Of a stretch of DNA of 64,000 nucleotides, positions 28,503-53,333 are shown piece after piece. The position numbers and the translations under genes are program-made. How positions within the stretch are numbered: the stretch's first letter is position 1; each line of letters starts with the position of its first letter. Source of the stretch: Candidatus Bathyarchaeota archaeon. GTDB taxonomy: Archaea; Thermoproteota; Bathyarchaeia; Bathyarchaeales; DTEX01. Below the pieces are notes generated by a model, which searched no databases, was not told the origin of the DNA, and saw only the letters and a program-made list of their open reading frames with translations. The DNA is taken from the NCBI GenBank assembly GCA_963714275.1, contig CAVQNT010000007.1, positions 96,001 to 160,000 of the forward strand. The letters are read 5' to 3'.

Positions 28503-28530
28503 GTTTGGGTTTGGGGATTAAATTTTAATC
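28503..28530 (+). repeat. Cas1-element end motif
   Basis: GTTTGGGTTTGGG followed by GATTAAATTTTAATC. Confidence 0.85.
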
Positions 28531-29919: not shown

Positions 29920-30765
29920 GCTAGAAACTGAGGGGGTACTATAGTTATCCGAGCTGCAAATCCTTAAAAACTCTTATTTCAATATTAAATCTGTGAACTG
30001 GCTGACGGATTGGTTTGTTATATACCTCCTTCTTGTTCCCTTATTGACTGTTGTGGTTCTATGCTTAAGCTTTTAAATTGTATATTAAGCAAAAAAAGAA
30101 GTGGTTAAGGGATGAAGAAGTAGAAAAGTAGCTAAGTTGAGTTGAGAAAGTGTCTGATCTTTTTTTCTAAGCTATTCCAAAAGCGAAAATAGAACACCTG
30201 CATTTTAAAGCGAAAAACTATATAATTTATATATGTCCAGATAGGTGAAGAGAATGATGACTTGGGATAACCCAATTTTACCTTTACTTTTCACTATCGT
30301 AATTATATCTGGTATTTTAATTCCTCTTCTTATTGTGTTAATATCTTACATACGAATGAATTTGAACAAGAAGAAAAAAGAAAAAATAAAGAAAAGAAAA
30401 TCTCTTAGTTCTAATTTTATTTCGTCATAAGTTTGAAGCGAAAAAGCTAGGGGTAAATGCTTAAAATCGATTCAAAATATTGAGTTATACTTCATAAGAG
30501 TAATTATAATAGTTTCATAAATATATTCTGCTAGTTAGGAGAGAATTTTATGGAAGTAGGTGAACACGAAATAAATAAAGATAAAAAACTTACAATAAAA
30601 GATAAATTATCAATAACAGCACAGGGCATGTTAATGATGGCATCTGCCTTTGAGGTTTTATGGATATACAAAATTTTTTTGGGATTCTAGTCACTAGTTT
30701 AAAAGTAGTCTGGTAATAGTTCCATATTTCTTTTAATGTTTTGGTTCCTTTATGTCCTTGTATTC

Positions 30766-32997: not shown

Positions 32998-33185
32998 AAT
33001 AACTGAAAAGAGAAATCTGAGAAACAATCTTTCCCTACGATTTCCCGGGACGTGCAGCGCGCACACTAGTTCTATGGTTCAATAAATTCGAATTAAATCC
33101 CCATACCCAAACACACACAATTTTACCCCCCACACCAATAGCGGTTCAAATCTGTTAGGACGTTCCAATCTATATACACACTTAG

Positions 33186-43329: not shown

Positions 43330-43420
43330 TTAGAAATCAAAATTAGGCGTTCTGGGAATCCATGTTTCTCTTTCGCCTCTCAGAAACTTGAATAACAAGG
43401 CTTCTTCATTAATCAGCGTT
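43330..43420 (-). pseudogene. cas1 3'-end remnant
   Basis: Translates TLINEEALLFKFLRGERETWIPRTPNFDF* versus cas1 TLINEEALIFAKYLRGERETWAPRIAVT*. Confidence 0.88.
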
Positions 43421-43628
43421 TTTCTTCCGTTTACCCTATACTGCCTGACTCAGTATTAATCAGCGTCCTATCCTAGCTAGTATAGTGCACACACAGTTAG
43501 TATCAGCGTCCATCTCTATGCCTTAACCAACCACTACCTTTTCTTGCAGTGCTCTGCCTTATTTCCAGAATCATAGCAGAGCAGTCCATCTAATGCTTTG
43601 ATTCCATTGATTTTTTTGTGTGTGTGTG

Positions 43629-46168: not shown

Positions 46169-46443
46169 ATAAAAAACATCTCTTTGGGATTATAATTCAA
46201 AATTTCTATGCTAAACGATTAAAGACTTTTGGTGCATGTGTTTTTTGTATGATTTGTATGATTAATTGGTAGATTAGTTAATTGATTGATATAGTGAGAG
46301 AGAGATTGAGATTGGGTGATCGTTAAGTTGGAATAAAATTTCAATTCCTTCCTTAAAATTTAACCTTTTTCTTCTGTTCTGTGTGCTCTCTACTTTCATA
46401 CAACAAATATATCAAGGGAATGGCTAGCTAGCCAAGTATACGA

Positions 46444-47114
46444 TTGAAGGATGTGCTAATGAAAAAAAGAGTGTTACTGAACCTTGTAAGTGTGGCAGCT
46501 ATCTCAGTTATCTCTGCTATAATTTTGTGGGATATCCTGTTCTTACAGAGAAGCCTGGGACAAATTGGACTATTCAGCATCTTTTTTGTCTCAATGATTA
46601 GCCACATGACAATCGTGGCTAGAGATATGTTTTTGCCTTTGTTTCTATCACTCAAGCTGGAGTACAATCCTATTCTTCTCGGAATACTTGCTGGTTGGGG
46701 AGGAGCATTAGGTGATGTTTCTTCCTATTTTCTGGGCTGGGGAATTGGTGAGTCCATACGAAATGAGCAAGGAGGAGGCAAAATCATCTGACTCGATGGA
46801 TAAAACAACATGGTCTGTGGGCGGTCTTATTGTTCGCTGTAACTCCATTGCCTGACACGCCGATTCTTATTCTCGCGGGATCAAGCCAACTTCCATTCAA
46901 GAAGCTACTACTCGTCGAGGGCATAGGTAAAACCGCATTATACAGCCTAGGGGGATTTGTGGGCAGTTTTATAATGGAGGATTTCAGTGGCACAATTGGA
47001 AGTTTGTATTCCTCCATTGCCATAGTTGTTTTATCAATAATATTCTGCATCCTAATCACATGGAACAGAAGTAGGAAGGCTCTTTTCGGCTGGCTCGAGA
47101 AGTTTATACACTAA
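46444..47114 (+). CDS. VTT/DedA (SNARE-associated) membrane protein, frameshifted
   Basis: GGALGD..SYFLG, FAVTPLPD and GIGK motifs. Confidence 0.8.
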
Positions 47115-47191
47115 CTGCAGCAAGTAGCAACTATTCTAGGAATCCACATTTCTCGTCCGACTCTTAGATACTTTGCAAATAGTAAGACTTC
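47111..47191 (-). pseudogene. cas1 3'-end remnant
   Basis: Translates EVLLFAKYLRVGREMWIPRIVATCCS*; lies 17 bp outside the intact element. Confidence 0.82.
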
Positions 47192-47208
47192 AGAGGGCTC
47201 GCGAGAAA

Positions 47209-47280
47209 GATTAAAATTTAATCCCCAAACCCAAACCCAAACCCAAACCCAAACTACCTCACTCTACCTCACTCTCTCTC
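47209..47280 (+). repeat. Left end: 15-bp palindrome, (CCCAAA)5 and CTCACTCTACCTCA
   Basis: Read directly; inverted match to 51562-51639. Confidence 0.9.
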
Positions 47281-47359
47281 TAGTAATACCTAAAGAAACC
47301 AAGAAACCAACAAACAATCAAACAAACGAACAAACAAACAGAACAAAAACAAATAAAAA

Positions 47360-48183
47360 TTACTCTGAGCAGTCGGTAAGTGAAGGTAGATTGGGCAATT
47401 TACTACTAACCCAATCATGGAGAGTTTGGCATGCCTTCGGTCTATCTATGGATCCTTTCGAGTCCATCCATTCTTTCCAAACATCATAGAACTCTTTCAT
47501 CTCCTTCAATAGGGGGTCAACCTTTTTATCAACTAATATATCCTTCTTAAGATCTGAAAAGCTGTTGTAGTTTCTCTCTCTAACCCAATGACTTAGGTAG
47601 ACGAGTCTACTAGTTATGTACATCATCATGTCTTGGCAAAGCCCTGCTGTACCTTCAAGGCTTTTCTTCCAGTCAGGATCTCCAAGCCATTGTTGGGCTC
47701 GTGCGTAGTCAGTAACGTCCTGAGCAAATAGACTCCATGTGTAGAATATGTTAACAACGCTATTGTAGAGTCTTAGCTCCTTGTCAAAGAACATAAGACT
47801 TATGAAGATATGGCGTAGCCAAGCTGTAGTCATATCCCACAAGAATCTCTGACCAATTTGTTCTTGCTTACGCTATCAATGAATTCTTTAATATTACTCC
47901 TGTGCAGTTCCAGATTCCTCAAAATATAGCCGATTGTGGTAGTACATGTCAGACCATATCTCGAGATATCGCTATTTATTGCGTCTATTCCTTGATCGAG
48001 ATATACCATCTCAATATTCCTATTGATCTCTGACCTTCGTTGCAGTCTGAATTGGTACCAAGTGATTATTATACTTCCTATTATGCCGCTTCCAAAGAGA
48101 AGTGTGAGAATGATATTCCAATCCAAATCCATGAATAAAAGATAACCGACAATGTATTTAATCTTTAACAAGGCTGATTTCAT
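47360..48183 (-). CDS. Cargo protein with an N-terminal transmembrane segment; ORFs 47830-48183 and 47360-47842 are probably one frameshifted gene
   Basis: Overlapping co-oriented ORFs immediately downstream of cas1. Confidence 0.5.
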
Positions 48184-48189
48184 AATAGT

Positions 48190-49224
48190 TCAAGTGACTG
48201 CGATTCTTGGTGCCCAAGTTTCCCGTTCTCCTCTAAGGTATTTAGCGAAAATTAAGGCTTCTTCGTTAATCAATGTTTCAAGGGTTTGTCTTTGACCGTG
48301 TTTGATTCTGGGAATTTCAACCTTAGACTCAAAAAAGAGGTTAAGCTTCCTCATCAAGTCTGAAGTCTTGGAATCGTTCAAGTATTCTCTTTTGCCCTTC
48401 TTAATCCTTGAAAGCCTTTCAGTCTTAACCGTGAAGTCTTTAACCTTGAGATTTTGGCAATATTGAACCAAAAAATCATCGATTAGATAACGATAGAGTT
48501 CTTGAAAATCGCATACTAAACTGGGCTTTCCGAACTGAATTGAATGCAAAAAGCCTAAGTAAGGTTCAAGCTTCGCCTTTATTATGGCTCTGTGAATCTT
48601 CCACTTTAAGACTTCATAGGCAAGATTGAAAGTGTTGTTCATGCCATCATAGGCTAAAAATGTCTCCCTAGAATGAGGTCTAACCTTTTCTGGAAACAGC
48701 ATGAAAATTCTACGAAAGTAAGCCCTAGAGTATTTGGCTTCAAAAGCTGACAGTCTCATCCTAATATGGTCTAGACTTTCTGACTCAATTCCTTCAATCT
48801 CATGTTTAAAACCCAAATTATGCGGTTCTAAACCATACTTTTCTAAGACTTTGTTCTGTCCCTCAATCTTGCATTGAACGAACTGTTTAGCGATACCGAT
48901 TCCCTTCCCGTTCTGCAAAGCTTCATACTGACATACTCTGGTTTTGACGTGGGAATCGTCTTCTAGGCTTCTCAACATCGCAACAGGTCTTCCTCTCTGA
49001 GTCAAGATTAAGACATCTATGTCCCAGAATCCTAGAGACGCTAAAGCTCCTGTGGAAACAGAGTTACCGCTTTTTAGAATGACTTCTCCTATTTCTTGTT
49101 CAAACAATGGATACCTGTCAACATTGTCATTTTTGTCCTTAACTACGAAACAGCCTTTCTCCATGCCTAAATACGAGCCTTGACCGTCAAGAACAAGTTT
49201 TAAGACTTTAGAACCTTGAACCAT
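48190..49224 (-). CDS. cas1: Solo Cas1 integrase (casposase-like)
   Basis: FEAKYSRAYF (E), NNTFNLAYEVL, LEPYLGFLH (H) and SLVCDFQELYR (D/E); the catalytic set appears intact. Confidence 0.93.
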   Translation of the reverse strand: MVQGSKVLKLVLDGQGSYLGMEKGCFVVKDKNDNVDRYPLFEQEIGEVILKSGNSVSTGALASLGFWDIDVLILTQRGRPVAMLRSLEDDSHVKTRVCQYEALQNGKGIGIAKQFVQCKIEGQNKVLEKYGLEPHNLGFKHEIEGIESESLDHIRMRLSAFEAKYSRAYFRRIFMLFPEKVRPHSRETFLAYDGMNNTFNLAYEVLKWKIHRAIIKAKLEPYLGFLHSIQFGKPSLVCDFQELYRYLIDDFLVQYCQNLKVKDFTVKTERLSRIKKGKREYLNDSKTSDLMRKLNLFFESKVEIPRIKHGQRQTLETLINEEALIFAKYLRGERETWAPRIAVT

Positions 49225-49308
49225 TATTTCACTCTCTTTTCATCACATTATCATTACGCAAGATAGATATATAAGAATTGTGATGATAAAGTAATGAGGA
49301 TGTAGTGA

Positions 49309-49470
49309 ATGATACGAAGTCTTAAATTAAAAAGAACACTTTCAGAATCAGGTAGAACTTTAGTTCTCAGAATACCTAAAGACATTGAAAGGTCTCTTTT
49401 GCTTAAGCTTGGAAACGAAGTCTACATATGGGTTGAAAATGGAAAAATTATCGTAGAACCTATAAGTTAA
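49309..49470 (+). CDS. AbrB/MazE/SpoVT-family regulator (53 aa, not in ORF track)
   Basis: SGRTLVLRIPKDIERSLLLKLGNEVYIWVENGKIIVEP; divergent from cas1. Confidence 0.8.
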   Translation: MIRSLKLKRTLSESGRTLVLRIPKDIERSLLLKLGNEVYIWVENGKIIVEPIS

Positions 49471-49907
49471 GTCTTTCACTTAGCAAATTTAAGACTTCAG
49501 CTCGTCAACCCCATAGAAGTGAACTCCTCACTCCTCAGCCTTCTTCCTTCCATACTCAATGGCTTCGTTGATAGTTTCACATTCATACAGTTCAGAGCTG
49601 AAAAACGAGAAACGGTAAATACCTTCTTGTTTCTTCTCTGTAACTTCATATTTAACCTTAAATTTCCTCACTTTTTCACCTCACTTTGTGGCGGTTCAAA
49701 GACCAAAGTGTAAGCCTTTTTCCCTTCAAGCACCTCTTTGACTTCGTCAATTTTCACGAAATATCGAACGTGTTTTATGACTACAGAGAGCTTCAAACTG
49801 TTCTTGGTTAAACTGACATAGCCACAGTCTTTCCAAACCATAACCCTTTCACCTCTCGAATACTGTCTTTTTTATCCTTCAAGTAAGCATTGATACGTTT
49901 CAAATTG

Positions 49908-50351
49908 TCAAACTCGAGACTTTTGAGTTTCAAGGTACTCTTTGACTTGTCCATCTTGCTTTCCATACCCGAAAACAACTCGTGGAGGAGGCTTCTTTCC
50001 TTTGCTTAGACACCTTACGGTTGAAGTTGTCTTAAGTCCCTGCATCAAGACATAGTTTTTTAAAGGTTCAATGTTTGACAGTCTCGCAACCCAGTCCATG
50101 ATTTTAACGTTTGTTTCCCATCTTACTCTGCGGTTGAAAATTACCGAAAAATTTCTCGAAATGTATCCATGTACCAGTTTGTGCCGAATTCTAATTAGAT
50201 GTTCTCGACTGCTTGACTCCAAAATTACGAATCCGTTCTGGTGATGGTACTTGCACACCATAAAAGCCCAAAATTTCACGATTGACAATGAAGTATTATC
50301 TATGTCTAGGCGAACTGTGTCGTTGCTCCAGTCTCCCCAATAAGGACTCAT
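49908..50351 (-). CDS. Hypothetical protein, possibly a minimal AEP primase-polymerase-like fold
   Basis: VRLDID (DxD), FVILESS..H and STVR...KPPPRVV; weak motif-level resemblance only. Confidence 0.35.
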   Translation of the reverse strand: MSPYWGDWSNDTVRLDIDNTSLSIVKFWAFMVCKYHHQNGFVILESSSREHLIRIRHKLVHGYISRNFSVIFNRRVRWETNVKIMDWVARLSNIEPLKNYVLMQGLKTTSTVRCLSKGKKPPPRVVFGYGKQDGQVKEYLETQKSRV

Positions 50352-50828
50352 TTAGGATTCGACCTCTTTCTGATCCCATGTTTTTTCCATATCGAGATAT
50401 TTGTCTGGGTTTCCCGTGATGTTCGTGGCTTTGATTGTTAGGAATTGCTTCTTAGGTGGATGTTGGCTAGCAAGCATCATGGCTTTGTATAGTTCACGTC
50501 CAGAACCATGCATCTGGATTCTTTTTGATTCTCCGTCCACTTTGCCATAAACTGCAACATGTTTGCCTCTGGGAGCTCTTCTTCTTACAACTTTAGTGGG
50601 TTTTCTGGGTTTTTTCCTATACTTGGTCGGAGTGTATTTTGATGGCTCAGATTTGGGTTTCCGTCCCTTAAATTCCCGCACATAGCCTAAGAGCTTCTGC
50701 CTCTTCATGCCCATGTGATGAGCTTGAAGGTCTCGTTGAATAGCGTTTGCACTCATGCCTTTCGCTGAGTCAGCCTTGATTCGGTCAACCTGCTCTTTAG
50801 ATGCTCCCCCTTTCTTAGGCATAGTCAA
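50352..50828 (-). CDS. Highly basic hypothetical protein with an HTH-like N-terminus
   Basis: KGMSANAIQRDL; K/R-rich linker. Confidence 0.55.
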   Translation of the reverse strand: MTMPKKGGASKEQVDRIKADSAKGMSANAIQRDLQAHHMGMKRQKLLGYVREFKGRKPKSEPSKYTPTKYRKKPRKPTKVVRRRAPRGKHVAVYGKVDGESKRIQMHGSGRELYKAMMLASQHPPKKQFLTIKATNITGNPDKYLDMEKTWDQKEVES

Positions 50829-51155
50829 AAGCCCTTCTCAAGTTCTATCAGCTCATGCGCTACTCGGAGATAATCCTCAATCGTAGAACGCTTAAAATAC
50901 AGTCCTAGAGATGTTGCTATTTGGTTCTCGGGAATTCCACTCTGCAAAAGTTGTTTGACTTTGTCGATATTGTATTTTCGTCTTGATGAGCCTTCGCCTT
51001 TGCTCCATTGGTCTAAAAATTGATTATTAAGGAGCTTTGCTGATTCTGGAAGAGTCTTTTTTGAATTCTGTATCTAAGTCTTTTTTAGGCTTCTTTTTTT
51101 CTTTTAGACTTTTTTCTATGTCCTTCAGTTCTTCTACGGTTGATTTTTCAGTCAC
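50825..51155 (-). CDS. HTH protein, frameshifted
   Basis: GTG start overlaps the upstream stop; KVKQLLQSGIPENQIATSLGLYFKRSTIEDYL. Confidence 0.5.
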
Positions 51156-51367
51156 TGTTTAGTCTCCTTTTCAATTTCGATTTGATGTTTTAGGTGCTGA
51201 AGCAGAATTTCCAGAGAACGCTTGACTTGTGTTGTCGTTAATTTTGGATTGTAGAGGACGACGGCGAAAGCATTAGGAAGAGCCTTTGGGCTTTCGCCTA
51301 GAATGTTAATGAAGTCTTGAGGGATGTACATACTGTTTTCTTTGTTTATGCTCATTTGTCTGTCCAT
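51152..51367 (-). CDS. AbrB-like small regulator
   Basis: INKENSMYIPQDF..ILG pattern; first gene of the operon. Confidence 0.5.
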   Translation of the reverse strand: MDRQMSINKENSMYIPQDFINILGESPKALPNAFAVVLYNPKLTTTQVKRSLEILLQHLKHQIEIEKETKQ

Positions 51368-51420
51368 ATCATTTCACTATGAAAATCTGAGGATTTGGAT
51401 AAGTATATAAAACTTATGCT

Positions 51421-51470
51421 TCAATTTATATCAAATTGATATAGATTTGTTTCAATTTACTATAAATTGA
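51421..51470. promoter_or_regulatory. Two tandem palindromic operators upstream of the element operon
   Basis: TCAATTTATATCAAATTGA (51421-51439) and TCAATTTACTATAAATTGA (51452-51470), each followed by TATAG. Confidence 0.65.
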
Positions 51471-51561
51471 TATAGGTTTATTTCTCTGTTCTGACTGTGT
51501 GTGGTGCGTATCTTTCTCTGTTTGTCTGTCTGACTGACTGTTCGTCTGACTGACTATCCTC

Positions 51562-51639
51562 TGAGAGAGAGGGAGAGAGAGGTTGAGGTAGAGTGAGTTA
51601 GAGAGTTTGGGTTTGGGTTTGGGGGATTAAAATTTAATC
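51562..51639 (+). repeat. Right end: TGAGGTAGAGTGAG, (TTTGGG)3 and the 15-bp palindrome
   Basis: Read directly; inverted match to the left end. Confidence 0.9.
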
Positions 51640-51941
51640 TTCTTCTCAGGTCTATTTGTTGCTTCGAGAACTAGGCGTCCTCGCCACCCACATTTTCTGC
51701 ATTCAAACTTGGGAGAAGTTAGAAACCTGTGAGCCAGCATGTCTCCATTCATGGTTCCAACTCTCTTAACCTGAGGACTTTTGCATCTAGGACAGATTTG
51801 GATATCAACATACTTTCCCTGTTTCCTCAATTTCTCCAATGTTTCTAACAATTTAGAAATATTTTGGCTTTCACTATCCTCTGTACAAGCAACAGGCTGT
51901 CGCTTCCCCTTCTTTTCCTCTTTCATTTCTTTATCGCTCAT
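51627..51941 (-). CDS. Zn-ribbon protein whose stop codon lies inside the palindrome
   Basis: CPRCKS...ECRKCGW. Confidence 0.65.
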   Translation of the reverse strand: MSDKEMKEEKKGKRQPVACTEDSESQNISKLLETLEKLRKQGKYVDIQICPRCKSPQVKRVGTMNGDMLAHRFLTSPKFECRKCGWRGRLVLEATNRPEKKIKF

Positions 51942-52066: not shown

Positions 52067-53333
52067 TTATGATTTTTGCTTCACAAATCGAACTTTCTCT
52101 GGTTCCTCACGCATCAATGAGTTTATGGCATTCTCTAAATCTTTCTTCAATGTTGTAAAATCTTTAGTGAGTTTTTCATTGCGTTTTTCTTGAGTTTCCA
52201 GTTTGGTTTGTAATGCCGTTATGTTTTTGTACATCTGTGCCATTTGTTCGGTTACTTCGCTGGGGATTACTGTTTTCTCTACAATCTGCTTTTCTTCGGG
52301 AGTTAAATAGTGTTCTATACTTTGGTATATTTGACGCAATTCCTCTTTTCTTGATTGTCCCTGAAAATAACTTTCTTCCTGTCCCTCTAATTTATGCCCC
52401 ATCATCCAATAAACAACATTACTATTAACATTCTTTCCTTGAAGCACACTATCAAAAAACTTCCTGAAGCAATGTGAACGTATGCGTCCATGTTTACCAT
52501 TCAATTCTAATTGCGCTCGCTTTGCTAATTCCTTATGCATAGCTGTCCATTGAACAGACTGAAAGCGCTGTGTTGTCCCCACCTTGTCCTTGAAAGACAT
52601 ATTGATTTCTGACCGCTTCAATACCATCTCTTTCAATTCGATACCTCAAATCAATGCTCAGCAGTCTAATTCCAAAGGCACCTAAGAATGTGTAACGCTC
52701 TCCTATCTCCCGACCCATAGTTTTCTCTGGCATATATTCAATGCACATTGGAGTTTTCTTGGCTCCTAAATTCTCTAAGTCATATTCGGTTAGGTCGGAC
52801 ACCTTAAACCTCTGCGCATCTCCAACCCTCATGCCCGTTTGAGCAAGCCACACTGTCCTAAGTTTCTCTTTATAGTCTCCCGCATCTACTAAAGCCTTAA
52901 AATCGCTTTCGGATAACGCCACATCCTTGTATTTCCGCTCTTTGCTTTTCCGATATGTAGTGTCTGCTTTTGTCAGTCTCAGTCCAATGTATGAATAGAA
53001 CGACTTGATAATCATCCTTGCAGTGTTGATTGTGCCCGAAGCCAATTCTGACTCAAGGTCAATGAACGTTTTTTGAAATTCTCGCTCACCACTCTTCCGC
53101 CTCAATAGTGCCTCAGACGGTGTCTCTCCTTCCTTTGGTTTGTAGTCGTTAGTCCGTTCTTCTAAAAGCTGTTTTGGAGATTTACCGACTCGCTCACAAT
53201 ATTGAGCCAAATAGATTAGGTAGAGGTCCTTGGTTTTAGTTGATTTTCCTGATAACCATTGCTCCACTAACCTTTTAGTTTCCTCATCATATTGTGCCAA
53301 TATGTCCTTTGTTTTTGTTTTCTTTCCCGTCAT
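52067..53333 (-). CDS. Tyrosine recombinase/integrase, frameshifted near 52570
   Basis: QTGMRVGD, SHCFRKFF, MMGH and SYF motifs. Confidence 0.9.

Follow-up and report, generated by a model that had tools for sequence, protein, structure and literature searches.

The accepted model derives the CRISPR adaptation machinery from casposons, of which the known ones are rare, large elements that carry a polymerase and target the ends of genes. We analysed a 64,000-nucleotide stretch of DNA (the window; C7:96001-160000, on contig C7 of source genome G000) from a Candidatus Bathyarchaeota archaeon, whose genome is 2.64 Mb long in 10 contigs, with about 43% G+C and a completeness of 91%. The window holds a 4.4-kb cas1-bearing unit with an AT-rich palindrome in direct orientation at both borders, which a preliminary description had read as a mobile element with a solo Cas1 and without a family B polymerase (PolB). 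Our analysis makes it likely that this unit (47223-51625) is a complete element, and probably an autonomous one, of a large Cas1-encoded family of DNA transposons that occurs in Bathyarchaeia and a few other archaea and would work in a casposon-like manner without PolB.

Casposases, according to PMC9939771, produce duplications of about 15 bp, prefer specific sites and give tandem insertions, and according to PMC6977970 casposase recapitulates CRISPR integration. With casposons of families 1-4 (PMC4046053, PMC9939771), the family studied here shares a Cas1-family integrase (predicted here) as the only recombinase, terminal inverted repeats, a sequence-specific and reusable target with a duplication (putative here) of comparable length, 13 bp against 14-15 bp in casposons, tandem insertions, and insertion at the 3′ end of a gene. 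In contrast to casposons, our family has no PolB among the protein families listed for its elements, which measure 3.5-7.7 kb, and its Cas1 falls in a clade separate from the sampled family-1 casposases, scoring lower against the M. mazei casposase than against a CRISPR Cas1. The target is here a short free-standing palindrome and not the end of a tRNA or EF-2 gene, the ends are microsatellites, and the elements stand in arrays with many heterogeneous members and deletion derivatives.

The “family 5 casposases” proposed in PMC9755687 (2022) are six solo Cas1s from hot-spring metagenomes, outside families 1-4 and near the archaeal subtype I-A Cas1; their catalytic residues are kept, most lack PolB, some of the contigs have inverted repeats, and the authors propose non-self-replicating transposons. 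This paper anticipates the idea of PolB-less Cas1 transposons. By the features described our clade is compatible with family 5 and may be the same, and the text of that paper differs from the present account in giving no target, duplication, array or accessory genes. In literature searches and in passages of PMC4046053, PMC9939771, PMC9755687, PMC13343696 and PMC10848311 we found no account of this palindromic target, of the arrays, or of an element that combines Cas1 with a protein resembling archaeo-eukaryotic primases (AEP), though a prior description may exist.

CRISPR adaptation has in common with these elements that Cas1 chemistry, which we infer to operate here as well, takes place at the two edges of a short and often palindromic repeat, of which every insertion makes a further copy, leaving inserts between identical repeats. 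The elements differ in having no Cas2, leader or CRISPR RNA machinery, a repeat of 13 bp, and kilobase inserts with inverted ends of their own, at about 25 scattered places of the genome.

A 13-bp palindrome at the borders of the elements

The window unit is flanked by two copies of the 15-mer GATTAAAATTTAATC, at 47209-47223 and 51625-51639, in the same orientation. Sequences with at most two mismatches to this 15-mer occur 91 times in the genome and 8 times in a shuffle of it, while the exact 13-bp core, ATTAAAWTTTAAT, is found 39 times against none. The core sites are grouped in about 25 places, and nearly every copy borders microsatellite-like sequence on one or both sides. Read outward from the core, the repeats are CCCAAA, CACACA, TTTCTCTC, TTCTTC, CCTT, CAAC or CCA. 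The arms beside exact cores are G-free over 12 nt in 55 of 78 cases, against a background of 6.5%, and among the 116 G-free arms at sites with at most one mismatch the first base is C in 79.

Complete elements were taken to be paired cores whose inner arms are mutual inverted repeats. After removal of duplicates (L082, equal to L081, and L099, equal to L098), 20 elements of 1.2-7.7 kb remained, and in 17 of these the flanking cores are direct: the window element, those at C2:931102, C3:76611 and C4:99115 of the same genome, and those at the related loci L021, L022, L029, L031, L037, L045, L080, L081, L083, L098, L102, L104 and L138. By our own arithmetic, 17 or more direct pairs out of 20 would be expected with a one-sided binomial probability of about 0.0013 if orientation were indifferent. 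Four elements have variant cores with further asymmetric changes, the same on both sides (ACTAAATTTTAAT at C2:931102 and in L022, ATTAAAATTTAGC in L083 and ATTTAATTTTTAT in L021); all four are direct. In addition, 19 of the genome's 39 exact sites have element-type arms on both sides of one 13-mer. The direct flanks in 17 of 20 elements and the cores shared by adjacent elements indicate that the core is a duplicated target and not a part of each end, in agreement with the preliminary description, which had taken the flanking palindrome for a target duplication.

The extent of the duplication had been put at 15 bp. The 15-mers that flank the window element are indeed identical and direct, but in 6 of the 12 non-redundant pairs from the metagenome survey (L080, L081, L083, L102, L138 and L021) positions 1 and/or 15 differ between the two sides while the inner 13 agree, and beside unique DNA position 1 can be G, T, A or C. 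This indicates a duplicated unit of 13 bp, and a 15-bp duplication was ruled out by the variation at positions 1 and 15. The usual first base of an element is C and its last base G, as in the window element (47223-51625). The putative direct duplication of 13 bp would be one or two bases shorter than the 14-15 bp of casposons. There is no tRNA gene within the 64-kb window, so the target is not a tRNA gene.

The inverted repeats that had been described as bounding the unit are present, but the right end is not an exact reverse complement of the left. The longer arms, 47236-47281 and 51578-51623, are 76% complementary over 46 nt, and the arms 47254-47281 and 51574-51601 reach 89% over 28 nt. The hexamer runs themselves, (CCCAAA)5 at the left end and (TTTGGG)3 at the right, pair perfectly across 19 nt. 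The motif CTCACTCTACCTCA is present together with its reverse complement, with an offset of a few bases relative to these runs. In related elements the inverted arms are perfect or near-perfect, and the ends carry CA, CT, CTT, CCTT, CAAC or CCA repeats in place of CCCAAA. Within one element the left and right ends can have unequal numbers of repeats, as in the window (5 against 3) and likewise in L081, L083, L098 and L102, which points to slippage at the ends. The likeness to telomeres on which the preliminary description had remarked is a resemblance only: a telomere function of the ends was considered and rejected, the end repeats being different among subfamilies.

Cas1 relationships, distribution and gene content

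The 344-aa (amino acid) open reading frame (ORF) of the unit at 48190-49224 is a Cas1 (PF01867, E 7.8e-46; TIGR00287, 160.7 bits). It had been described as a catalytically intact-looking cas1 in a unit with inverted ends and without cas2, cas4 or polymerase, and this description holds. Its catalytic tetrad (Table 1) is kept in all 31 rows of the family in our alignment, and the corresponding Glu/His/Asp/Glu are found in all 65 rows save for one Glu-to-Asp change in the phylum set, while Pfam, NCBIfam and PHROGs scans of the remaining ORFs of the window unit gave no Cas2, Cas4 or polymerase family. Nor does the whole genome (91% complete) contain a match to the Cas2 family PF09827, and a crude 12-mer periodicity finder, which is not a dedicated CRISPR finder, returned 0 array regions in it. 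Among proteins of known structure the best relative, judged by sequence, is a CRISPR Cas1, that of Archaeoglobus fulgidus (4n06, E 4.4e-24), with the M. mazei casposase (6opm) at E 3.8e-11.

To place the protein, we used two comparison sets. One consists of 30 Cas1 ORFs from the 30 loci that scored best when 301 genomes of this phylum were searched with Pfam, several of them beside Cas4-like ORFs. The other consists of four Cas1-like proteins encoded beside an EF-2 gene, two of which also have a neighbouring ORF of 593-594 aa that reads like a protein-primed PolB (pPolB). We take the EF-2 neighbour and the pPolB-like ORF to be the signature of family-1 casposons, and on this basis we call the four proteins family-1 casposases. 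With the window Cas1 as query, phmmer scores were at least 345 bits within the family, at most 80 for the phylum Cas1s and at most 62 for the family-1 casposases. In a 65-row maximum-likelihood tree the SH-aLRT support is 100 for the family (31 rows), 89 for the phylum Cas1s (30 rows) and 100 for the family-1 casposases (4 rows), each group being one side of a branch and the program warning that long branches meet. The tree covers Thermoproteota Cas1s and family-1 casposases, and casposase families 2-4 were compared solely through PDB 6opm. Judged by these comparisons, the window Cas1 family is a deep clade of its own, apart from the sampled CRISPR Cas1s and family-1 casposases; the phylogeny that had been suggested as a check thus does not nest it among the sampled CRISPR Cas1s.

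Homologues of the window Cas1 number more than 2200 in a collection of 5.8 billion proteins, the best 120 being 65-82% identical to it. Most lie on contigs of a few kb, and the few that are named come from Bathyarchaeia, Bathyarchaeota and, in one case (P0109, 66% identity), Hodarchaeales. A survey of Asgard archaea by Makarova and co-workers, in the CRISPR Journal of 2020, reportedly linked solo or diverged Cas1 homologues to unknown mobile elements; the Hodarchaeales label of P0109 suggests that it may have met this family. A full scan of 1.8 billion representatives gave 120 proteins at E <= 1e-30. Many of these are fragments, and among the full-length relatives identity goes down to 32%; no context was gained from the names of ten distant representatives. 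Among Bathyarchaeia, 28 of 301 species genomes and 19 of 107 genera have a Cas1 match at E <= 1e-40, several with multiple copies and fragments. This patchy distribution, together with the multicopy and fragmentary state of the gene, is the pattern of a mobile element. What had been described beforehand as a compact casposon-like family is a large one, with the window unit as one of many members, and its Cas1 lies outside the sampled casposase clade.

Related loci were collected from genomes (57, nearly all of them Bathyarchaeia metagenome-assembled genomes) and from metagenomes (80 retained of 449). Many of them have the same core beside the same kinds of end, with Cas1 elements of differing end types, so that other loci with such ends, for which the preliminary description had proposed to search, do exist.

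Cas1 is encoded in 16 of 17 complete elements, and no other gene is so widespread. Two types can be told apart. Type A comprises 9 elements, including that of the window, with CCCAAA, CCAAACCC, CCCAA or CCTT as end repeats, and has in common a protein of 146-222 aa (9 of 9; 49908-50351 in the window) and one of 102-165 aa (7 of 9; 50352-50828 in the window). Type B comprises 7 elements, with TTTCTCTC or TTCTTC ends and two other small proteins in common. The Cas1 lineage tracks end type and accessory genes in 13 of 13 cases: in type A all 9 are nearer to the window copy, and in type B all 4 are nearer to the C4 copy, a second full Cas1 gene of the genome (C4:100210-101235) that is 57% identical to the first.

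A Pfam scan of 119 non-overlapping ORFs from 15 complete elements found Cas1 in 14 of the 15, followed by regulators, Zn ribbons and cargo. No PolB, Cas2, Cas4, integrase or transposase is among the 25 families listed, beside which there are 22 unlisted families of a single member each, apparently ranking below E 2e-7. The cargo of one group of relatives (L017, L021, L022, L029, L098, L102 and L138) is of defence type, with a ThaI-like restriction endonuclease, an MmeI-like methylase, an AbiV HEPN protein, N6/N4 and N6 DNA methylases and type I restriction-modification fragments; the counts apply to the group as a whole.

The accessory proteins of the window unit had no match in PHROGs or NCBIfam. 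With profiles of the 147-aa and 158-aa proteins no credible PDB sequence was met, and a word-based homologue search with the 147-aa protein returned 4 proteins only. The catalytic motifs of AEPs are DxD, sxH and hD. In the type A protein to which the 147-aa protein belongs the DxD is invariant, and the His is absent from the window copy. The AEP-like family PF24387 is matched by 3 of 12 members below its cut-off (best E 0.0011, 19.3 bits against a cut-off of 27), and hhalign relates the larger type B protein to the 146-222-aa protein of type A with 69.8% probability (E 4.1e-5). We regard the 147-aa protein as a weak candidate for a minimal AEP, a lead and not a finding.

Possible mechanism and competing explanations

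In the transposition that we propose, the element's Cas1 would bind the two inverted ends, whose 3′ strands are purine-rich microsatellites, here (TTTGGG)n, and usually G-terminated. Cas1 would then join the 3′-OH groups to both strands of the palindrome ATTAAAWTTTAAT, 13 bp apart, and filling or repair of the gaps would copy the 13-mer; the symmetry of the target would fit a symmetric Cas1 oligomer. Each insertion would yield two copies of the target, so that later elements could adjoin earlier ones in tandem arrays with single 13-mers between them, in one of which the window element would lie. Regeneration of the target at each insertion would explain the arrays, and internal deletions would leave many non-autonomous remnants with ends and the 3′ part of cas1.

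If this is true, Cas1 alone can sustain an abundant transposon lineage (more than 2200 homologues, and about one in ten of the sampled Bathyarchaeia species), and a short palindromic target that is regenerated will naturally build arrays of inserts between identical repeats, the architecture thought to be ancestral to CRISPR arrays. The system would be simple to test, with a single protein, a target of 13 bp and ends short enough for oligonucleotide synthesis, and it may provide a site-specific integrase of practical interest. It would also account for many short, unassemblable Cas1 contigs in metagenomes of sediment and soil, whose present annotation is CRISPR-associated.

A bolder proposal, which we put forward tentatively and think rather unlikely to hold as a whole, would make these elements a living analogue of the casposon-to-CRISPR step. 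A solo Cas1 would read the palindrome by its symmetry, insert there and regenerate it, building repeat-insert-repeat arrays without Cas2, leader or polymerase. The small conserved protein would be a minimal primase-polymerase, serving to replicate or repair the element after excision and making its length-variable, G-rich, telomere-like 3′ ends by slippage, so that the elements would be self-synthesizing without PolB.

Several observations weigh against the transposon interpretation. No empty site, for which the preliminary description had proposed to search, and no excision product came to light: DNA searches with each flank in 40 relatives gave no orthologous locus, a search with the flanking Zn-ribbon protein met distant homologues only, and when the genome and 137 loci were compared all against all by megablast, presence/absence polymorphism was limited to a single indel, of 516 bp, that is not bounded by the 13-mer. 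The one public run with part of the stretch, in the form of contigs with 9% of the sampled words, yielded short low-depth pieces with no joint across the element and carries no weight either way. A near-identical second copy of the window element, the sole full copy of its subfamily in the genome, is absent by blastn, which found only a 92-nt left end (C6:195846, 90% identity) and Cas1 fragments, which gives no sign of recent movement. The window copy may even be inactive, with ends that are imperfect (76-89%) and an accessory gene that is probably frameshifted, since the C-terminal tail of the 147-aa protein, by comparison with the relative P0272, lies in another frame (49808-49978). Its Cas1 is no nearer to casposases than to CRISPR Cas1s. 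Finally, in 3 of the 20 complete elements (L017, L048 and C6:469853) the centre base is inverted between the flanks, the arms being 100% identical, and the only explanation that we can offer for these exceptions is later recombination or mutation.

Site-specific integration, too, leaves a conserved, specific sequence behind as direct repeats. The 13-mer could then be the core of an attachment site and its two copies attL and attR, recombined conservatively through a circle with one core by a recombinase encoded by the host or a helper, or by an unconventional Cas1. A split tyrosine-integrase-like gene with weak Pfam matches does lie beside the window element (52067-53333), and no empty site was found that would show a true duplication. 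We nevertheless consider this improbable, since no integrase is among the Pfam families listed above, since a crossover in the core would usually leave a variant on one side whereas the variant cores of L083, L021, L022 and C2:931102 are the same on both, and since long inverted ends that co-vary with the Cas1 lineage are a feature of transposons. It is very unlikely that the palindrome is instead the outermost, enzyme-binding part of the element's own inverted repeat, with no duplication at all and an identical centre base in the window by chance. In favour of this view, conservation across subfamilies is far stronger in the 13-mer than in the remaining end sequence, and the three elements with inverted centre bases would fit; but direct sense prevails in the other 17 and in every asymmetric variant, and adjoining elements share one 13-mer, not two abutting copies, at 19 of the 39 exact sites. 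Hardly any credence is due to the view that cas1 was left over when a CRISPR adaptation module decayed, or that it is a domesticated host gene, in either case amid unrelated repeats. It can invoke the A. fulgidus CRISPR Cas1 as a much better match than the M. mazei casposase in PDB (4n06 and 6opm, above), and a score that passes the general NCBIfam model of cas1. Yet the gene travels with inverted ends and the 13-mer in many genomes, multicopy, fragmentary and patchy, and neither Cas2 nor an array was found in this genome.

The window element, its neighbours and remnants

The features of the window element and of its immediate flanks are collected in Table 1. The two 31-bp repeats inside the right end are a candidate operator, for the AbrB-type or other small regulators, or a candidate origin. 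A promoter and terminator scan of bacterial design gave results at chance level.

Table 1 Features of the Cas1-encoding element and its flanks, in window coordinates
Feature	Position	Strand	Remarks
Older decayed element (left flank)	46352-47209		degenerate core CTTAAAATTTAAC at 46352, then TTCTTC-type end
Cas1 C-terminal remnant in left flank	~47130-47191	-	77-81% identical to last 60 nt of the genome's other Cas1 genes
Left copy of 13-bp palindromic target-site duplication, ATTAAAATTTAAT	47210-47222		core of 15-mer 47209-47223
Left terminal inverted repeat, C + (CCCAAA)5 + CTACCTCACTCTACCTCACTCTCTCTCT	47223-47281	+	strand reading inward is G-free
Subterminal degenerate A/C-rich repeats, AAAGAAACCAAGAAACCAAC family	47292-47339	+	
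160-aa ORF	47360-47842	-	no family match
117-aa ORF with hydrophobic stretch	47830-48183	-	no family match
Cas1-family integrase, 344 aa, predicted transposase of the element	48190-49224	-	E162, H227, D239, E242
AbrB/MazE-type small DNA-binding protein, 53 aa, likely regulator	49309-49470	+	PF04014, E 1.3e-7
Conserved 147-aa protein, invariant DxD, weak AEP-fold candidate	49908-50351	-	probably frameshifted copy
Conserved 158-aa basic protein	50352-50828	-	present in 7 of the 17 complete elements; neither a family nor a PDB match
71-aa ORF, first of leftward gene string	51152-51367	-	no family match
Two 31-bp direct repeats, each with internal palindrome (TCAATTTATATCAAATTGA-like)	51417-51478		just inside right end, upstream of leftward genes
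Right terminal inverted repeat, terminus (TTTGGG)3 GG	51563-51625	+	
Right copy of 13-bp duplication	51626-51638		includes last three codons and stop of flanking Zn-ribbon ORF
Zn-ribbon ORF, 104 aa, outside the element	51627-51941	-	last three codons and stop within right core

The preliminary description had joined the outer flanks into a reconstructed empty site, an imperfect palindrome of 29 bp and thus of CRISPR-repeat size. This virgin site was rejected, because both flanks resemble the ends of neighbouring elements, the left one being the end of an older element and the right one resembling another end type; the extended palindrome is therefore no CRISPR-repeat-sized target. On the left, the terminus ...CGCGAGAAA abuts the duplication and resembles the (GA)nAAA right ends at C2:389361 and C4:105159, the remnant matches the 3′ ends of the Cas1 genes C2:935120, C2:354571 and C1:90122, and a degenerate core with a TTCTTC-type left end lies about 770 bp farther to the left. 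The remnant and this core indicate that the window element stands in tandem with an older, internally deleted element. On the right, the flank TTCTTCTC... resembles the TTCTTC end type and is also the 3′ end of the Zn-ribbon ORF, whose product has distant homologues alone (28-40% identity), in 12 of 46 genomes of the family.

Remnants of this kind are common. Of the 26 Cas1 matches in the genome most are C-terminal fragments, typically covering residues ~300-342 and lying 0.6-1.1 kb from a core on the downstream side, which is the range of the core-to-Cas1 distance in full copies (970 and 1082 bp); several have an additional core 175-1400 bp upstream. These fragments are internally deleted copies with retained ends.

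The part of the window from 28517 to 51638 is a mosaic of core-bounded segments whose arms are of differing end types. Exact cores lie at 28517, 38237, 42585, 43630, 47210 and 51626; degenerate cores lie at 33086, 44948 and 46333/46352. Its appearance is that of a landing pad, or else a graveyard, for related elements. Within it, the 1-kb segment 42585-43642 has unlike ends (TTCTTC left, CACA right) and a Cas1 C-terminal remnant on the minus strand (43348-43425), and is probably a chimera of two truncated elements. At 46333-46364 only 6 nt, of CCTT type, lie between the degenerate cores ATAAAATTTCAAT and CTTAAAATTTAAC, an arrangement that may be the residue of an element that was almost fully deleted or excised. 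The 516-bp indel mentioned above is an insertion at 29948-30464 of the window (C7:125948-126464), relative to a paralogous stretch at C2:263718-264354 that is 96-99% identical.

Beside the Zn-ribbon gene, on the minus strand at 52067-53333, the split tyrosine-integrase-like gene consists of two ORFs, of 266 and 189 aa, that overlap; its Pfam matches, to Phage_int_SAM_4 and to the archaeal phage integrase, are weak (E 0.0022-0.0034), and it probably belongs to another integrated element. Elsewhere in the genome, the 5.4-kb segment C6:469853-475237 has perfect inverted arms without a microsatellite (ACTTACTATGG...) and flanks of GTTAAAWTTTAAC in inverted sense, and may be an element of a different kind on a similar palindrome. 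The segments C2:85231-87318 and C2:964692-966781, about 880 kb apart, have identical junction sequences in reverse complement, and reflect either a large inverted duplication or an assembly artefact that involves these elements.

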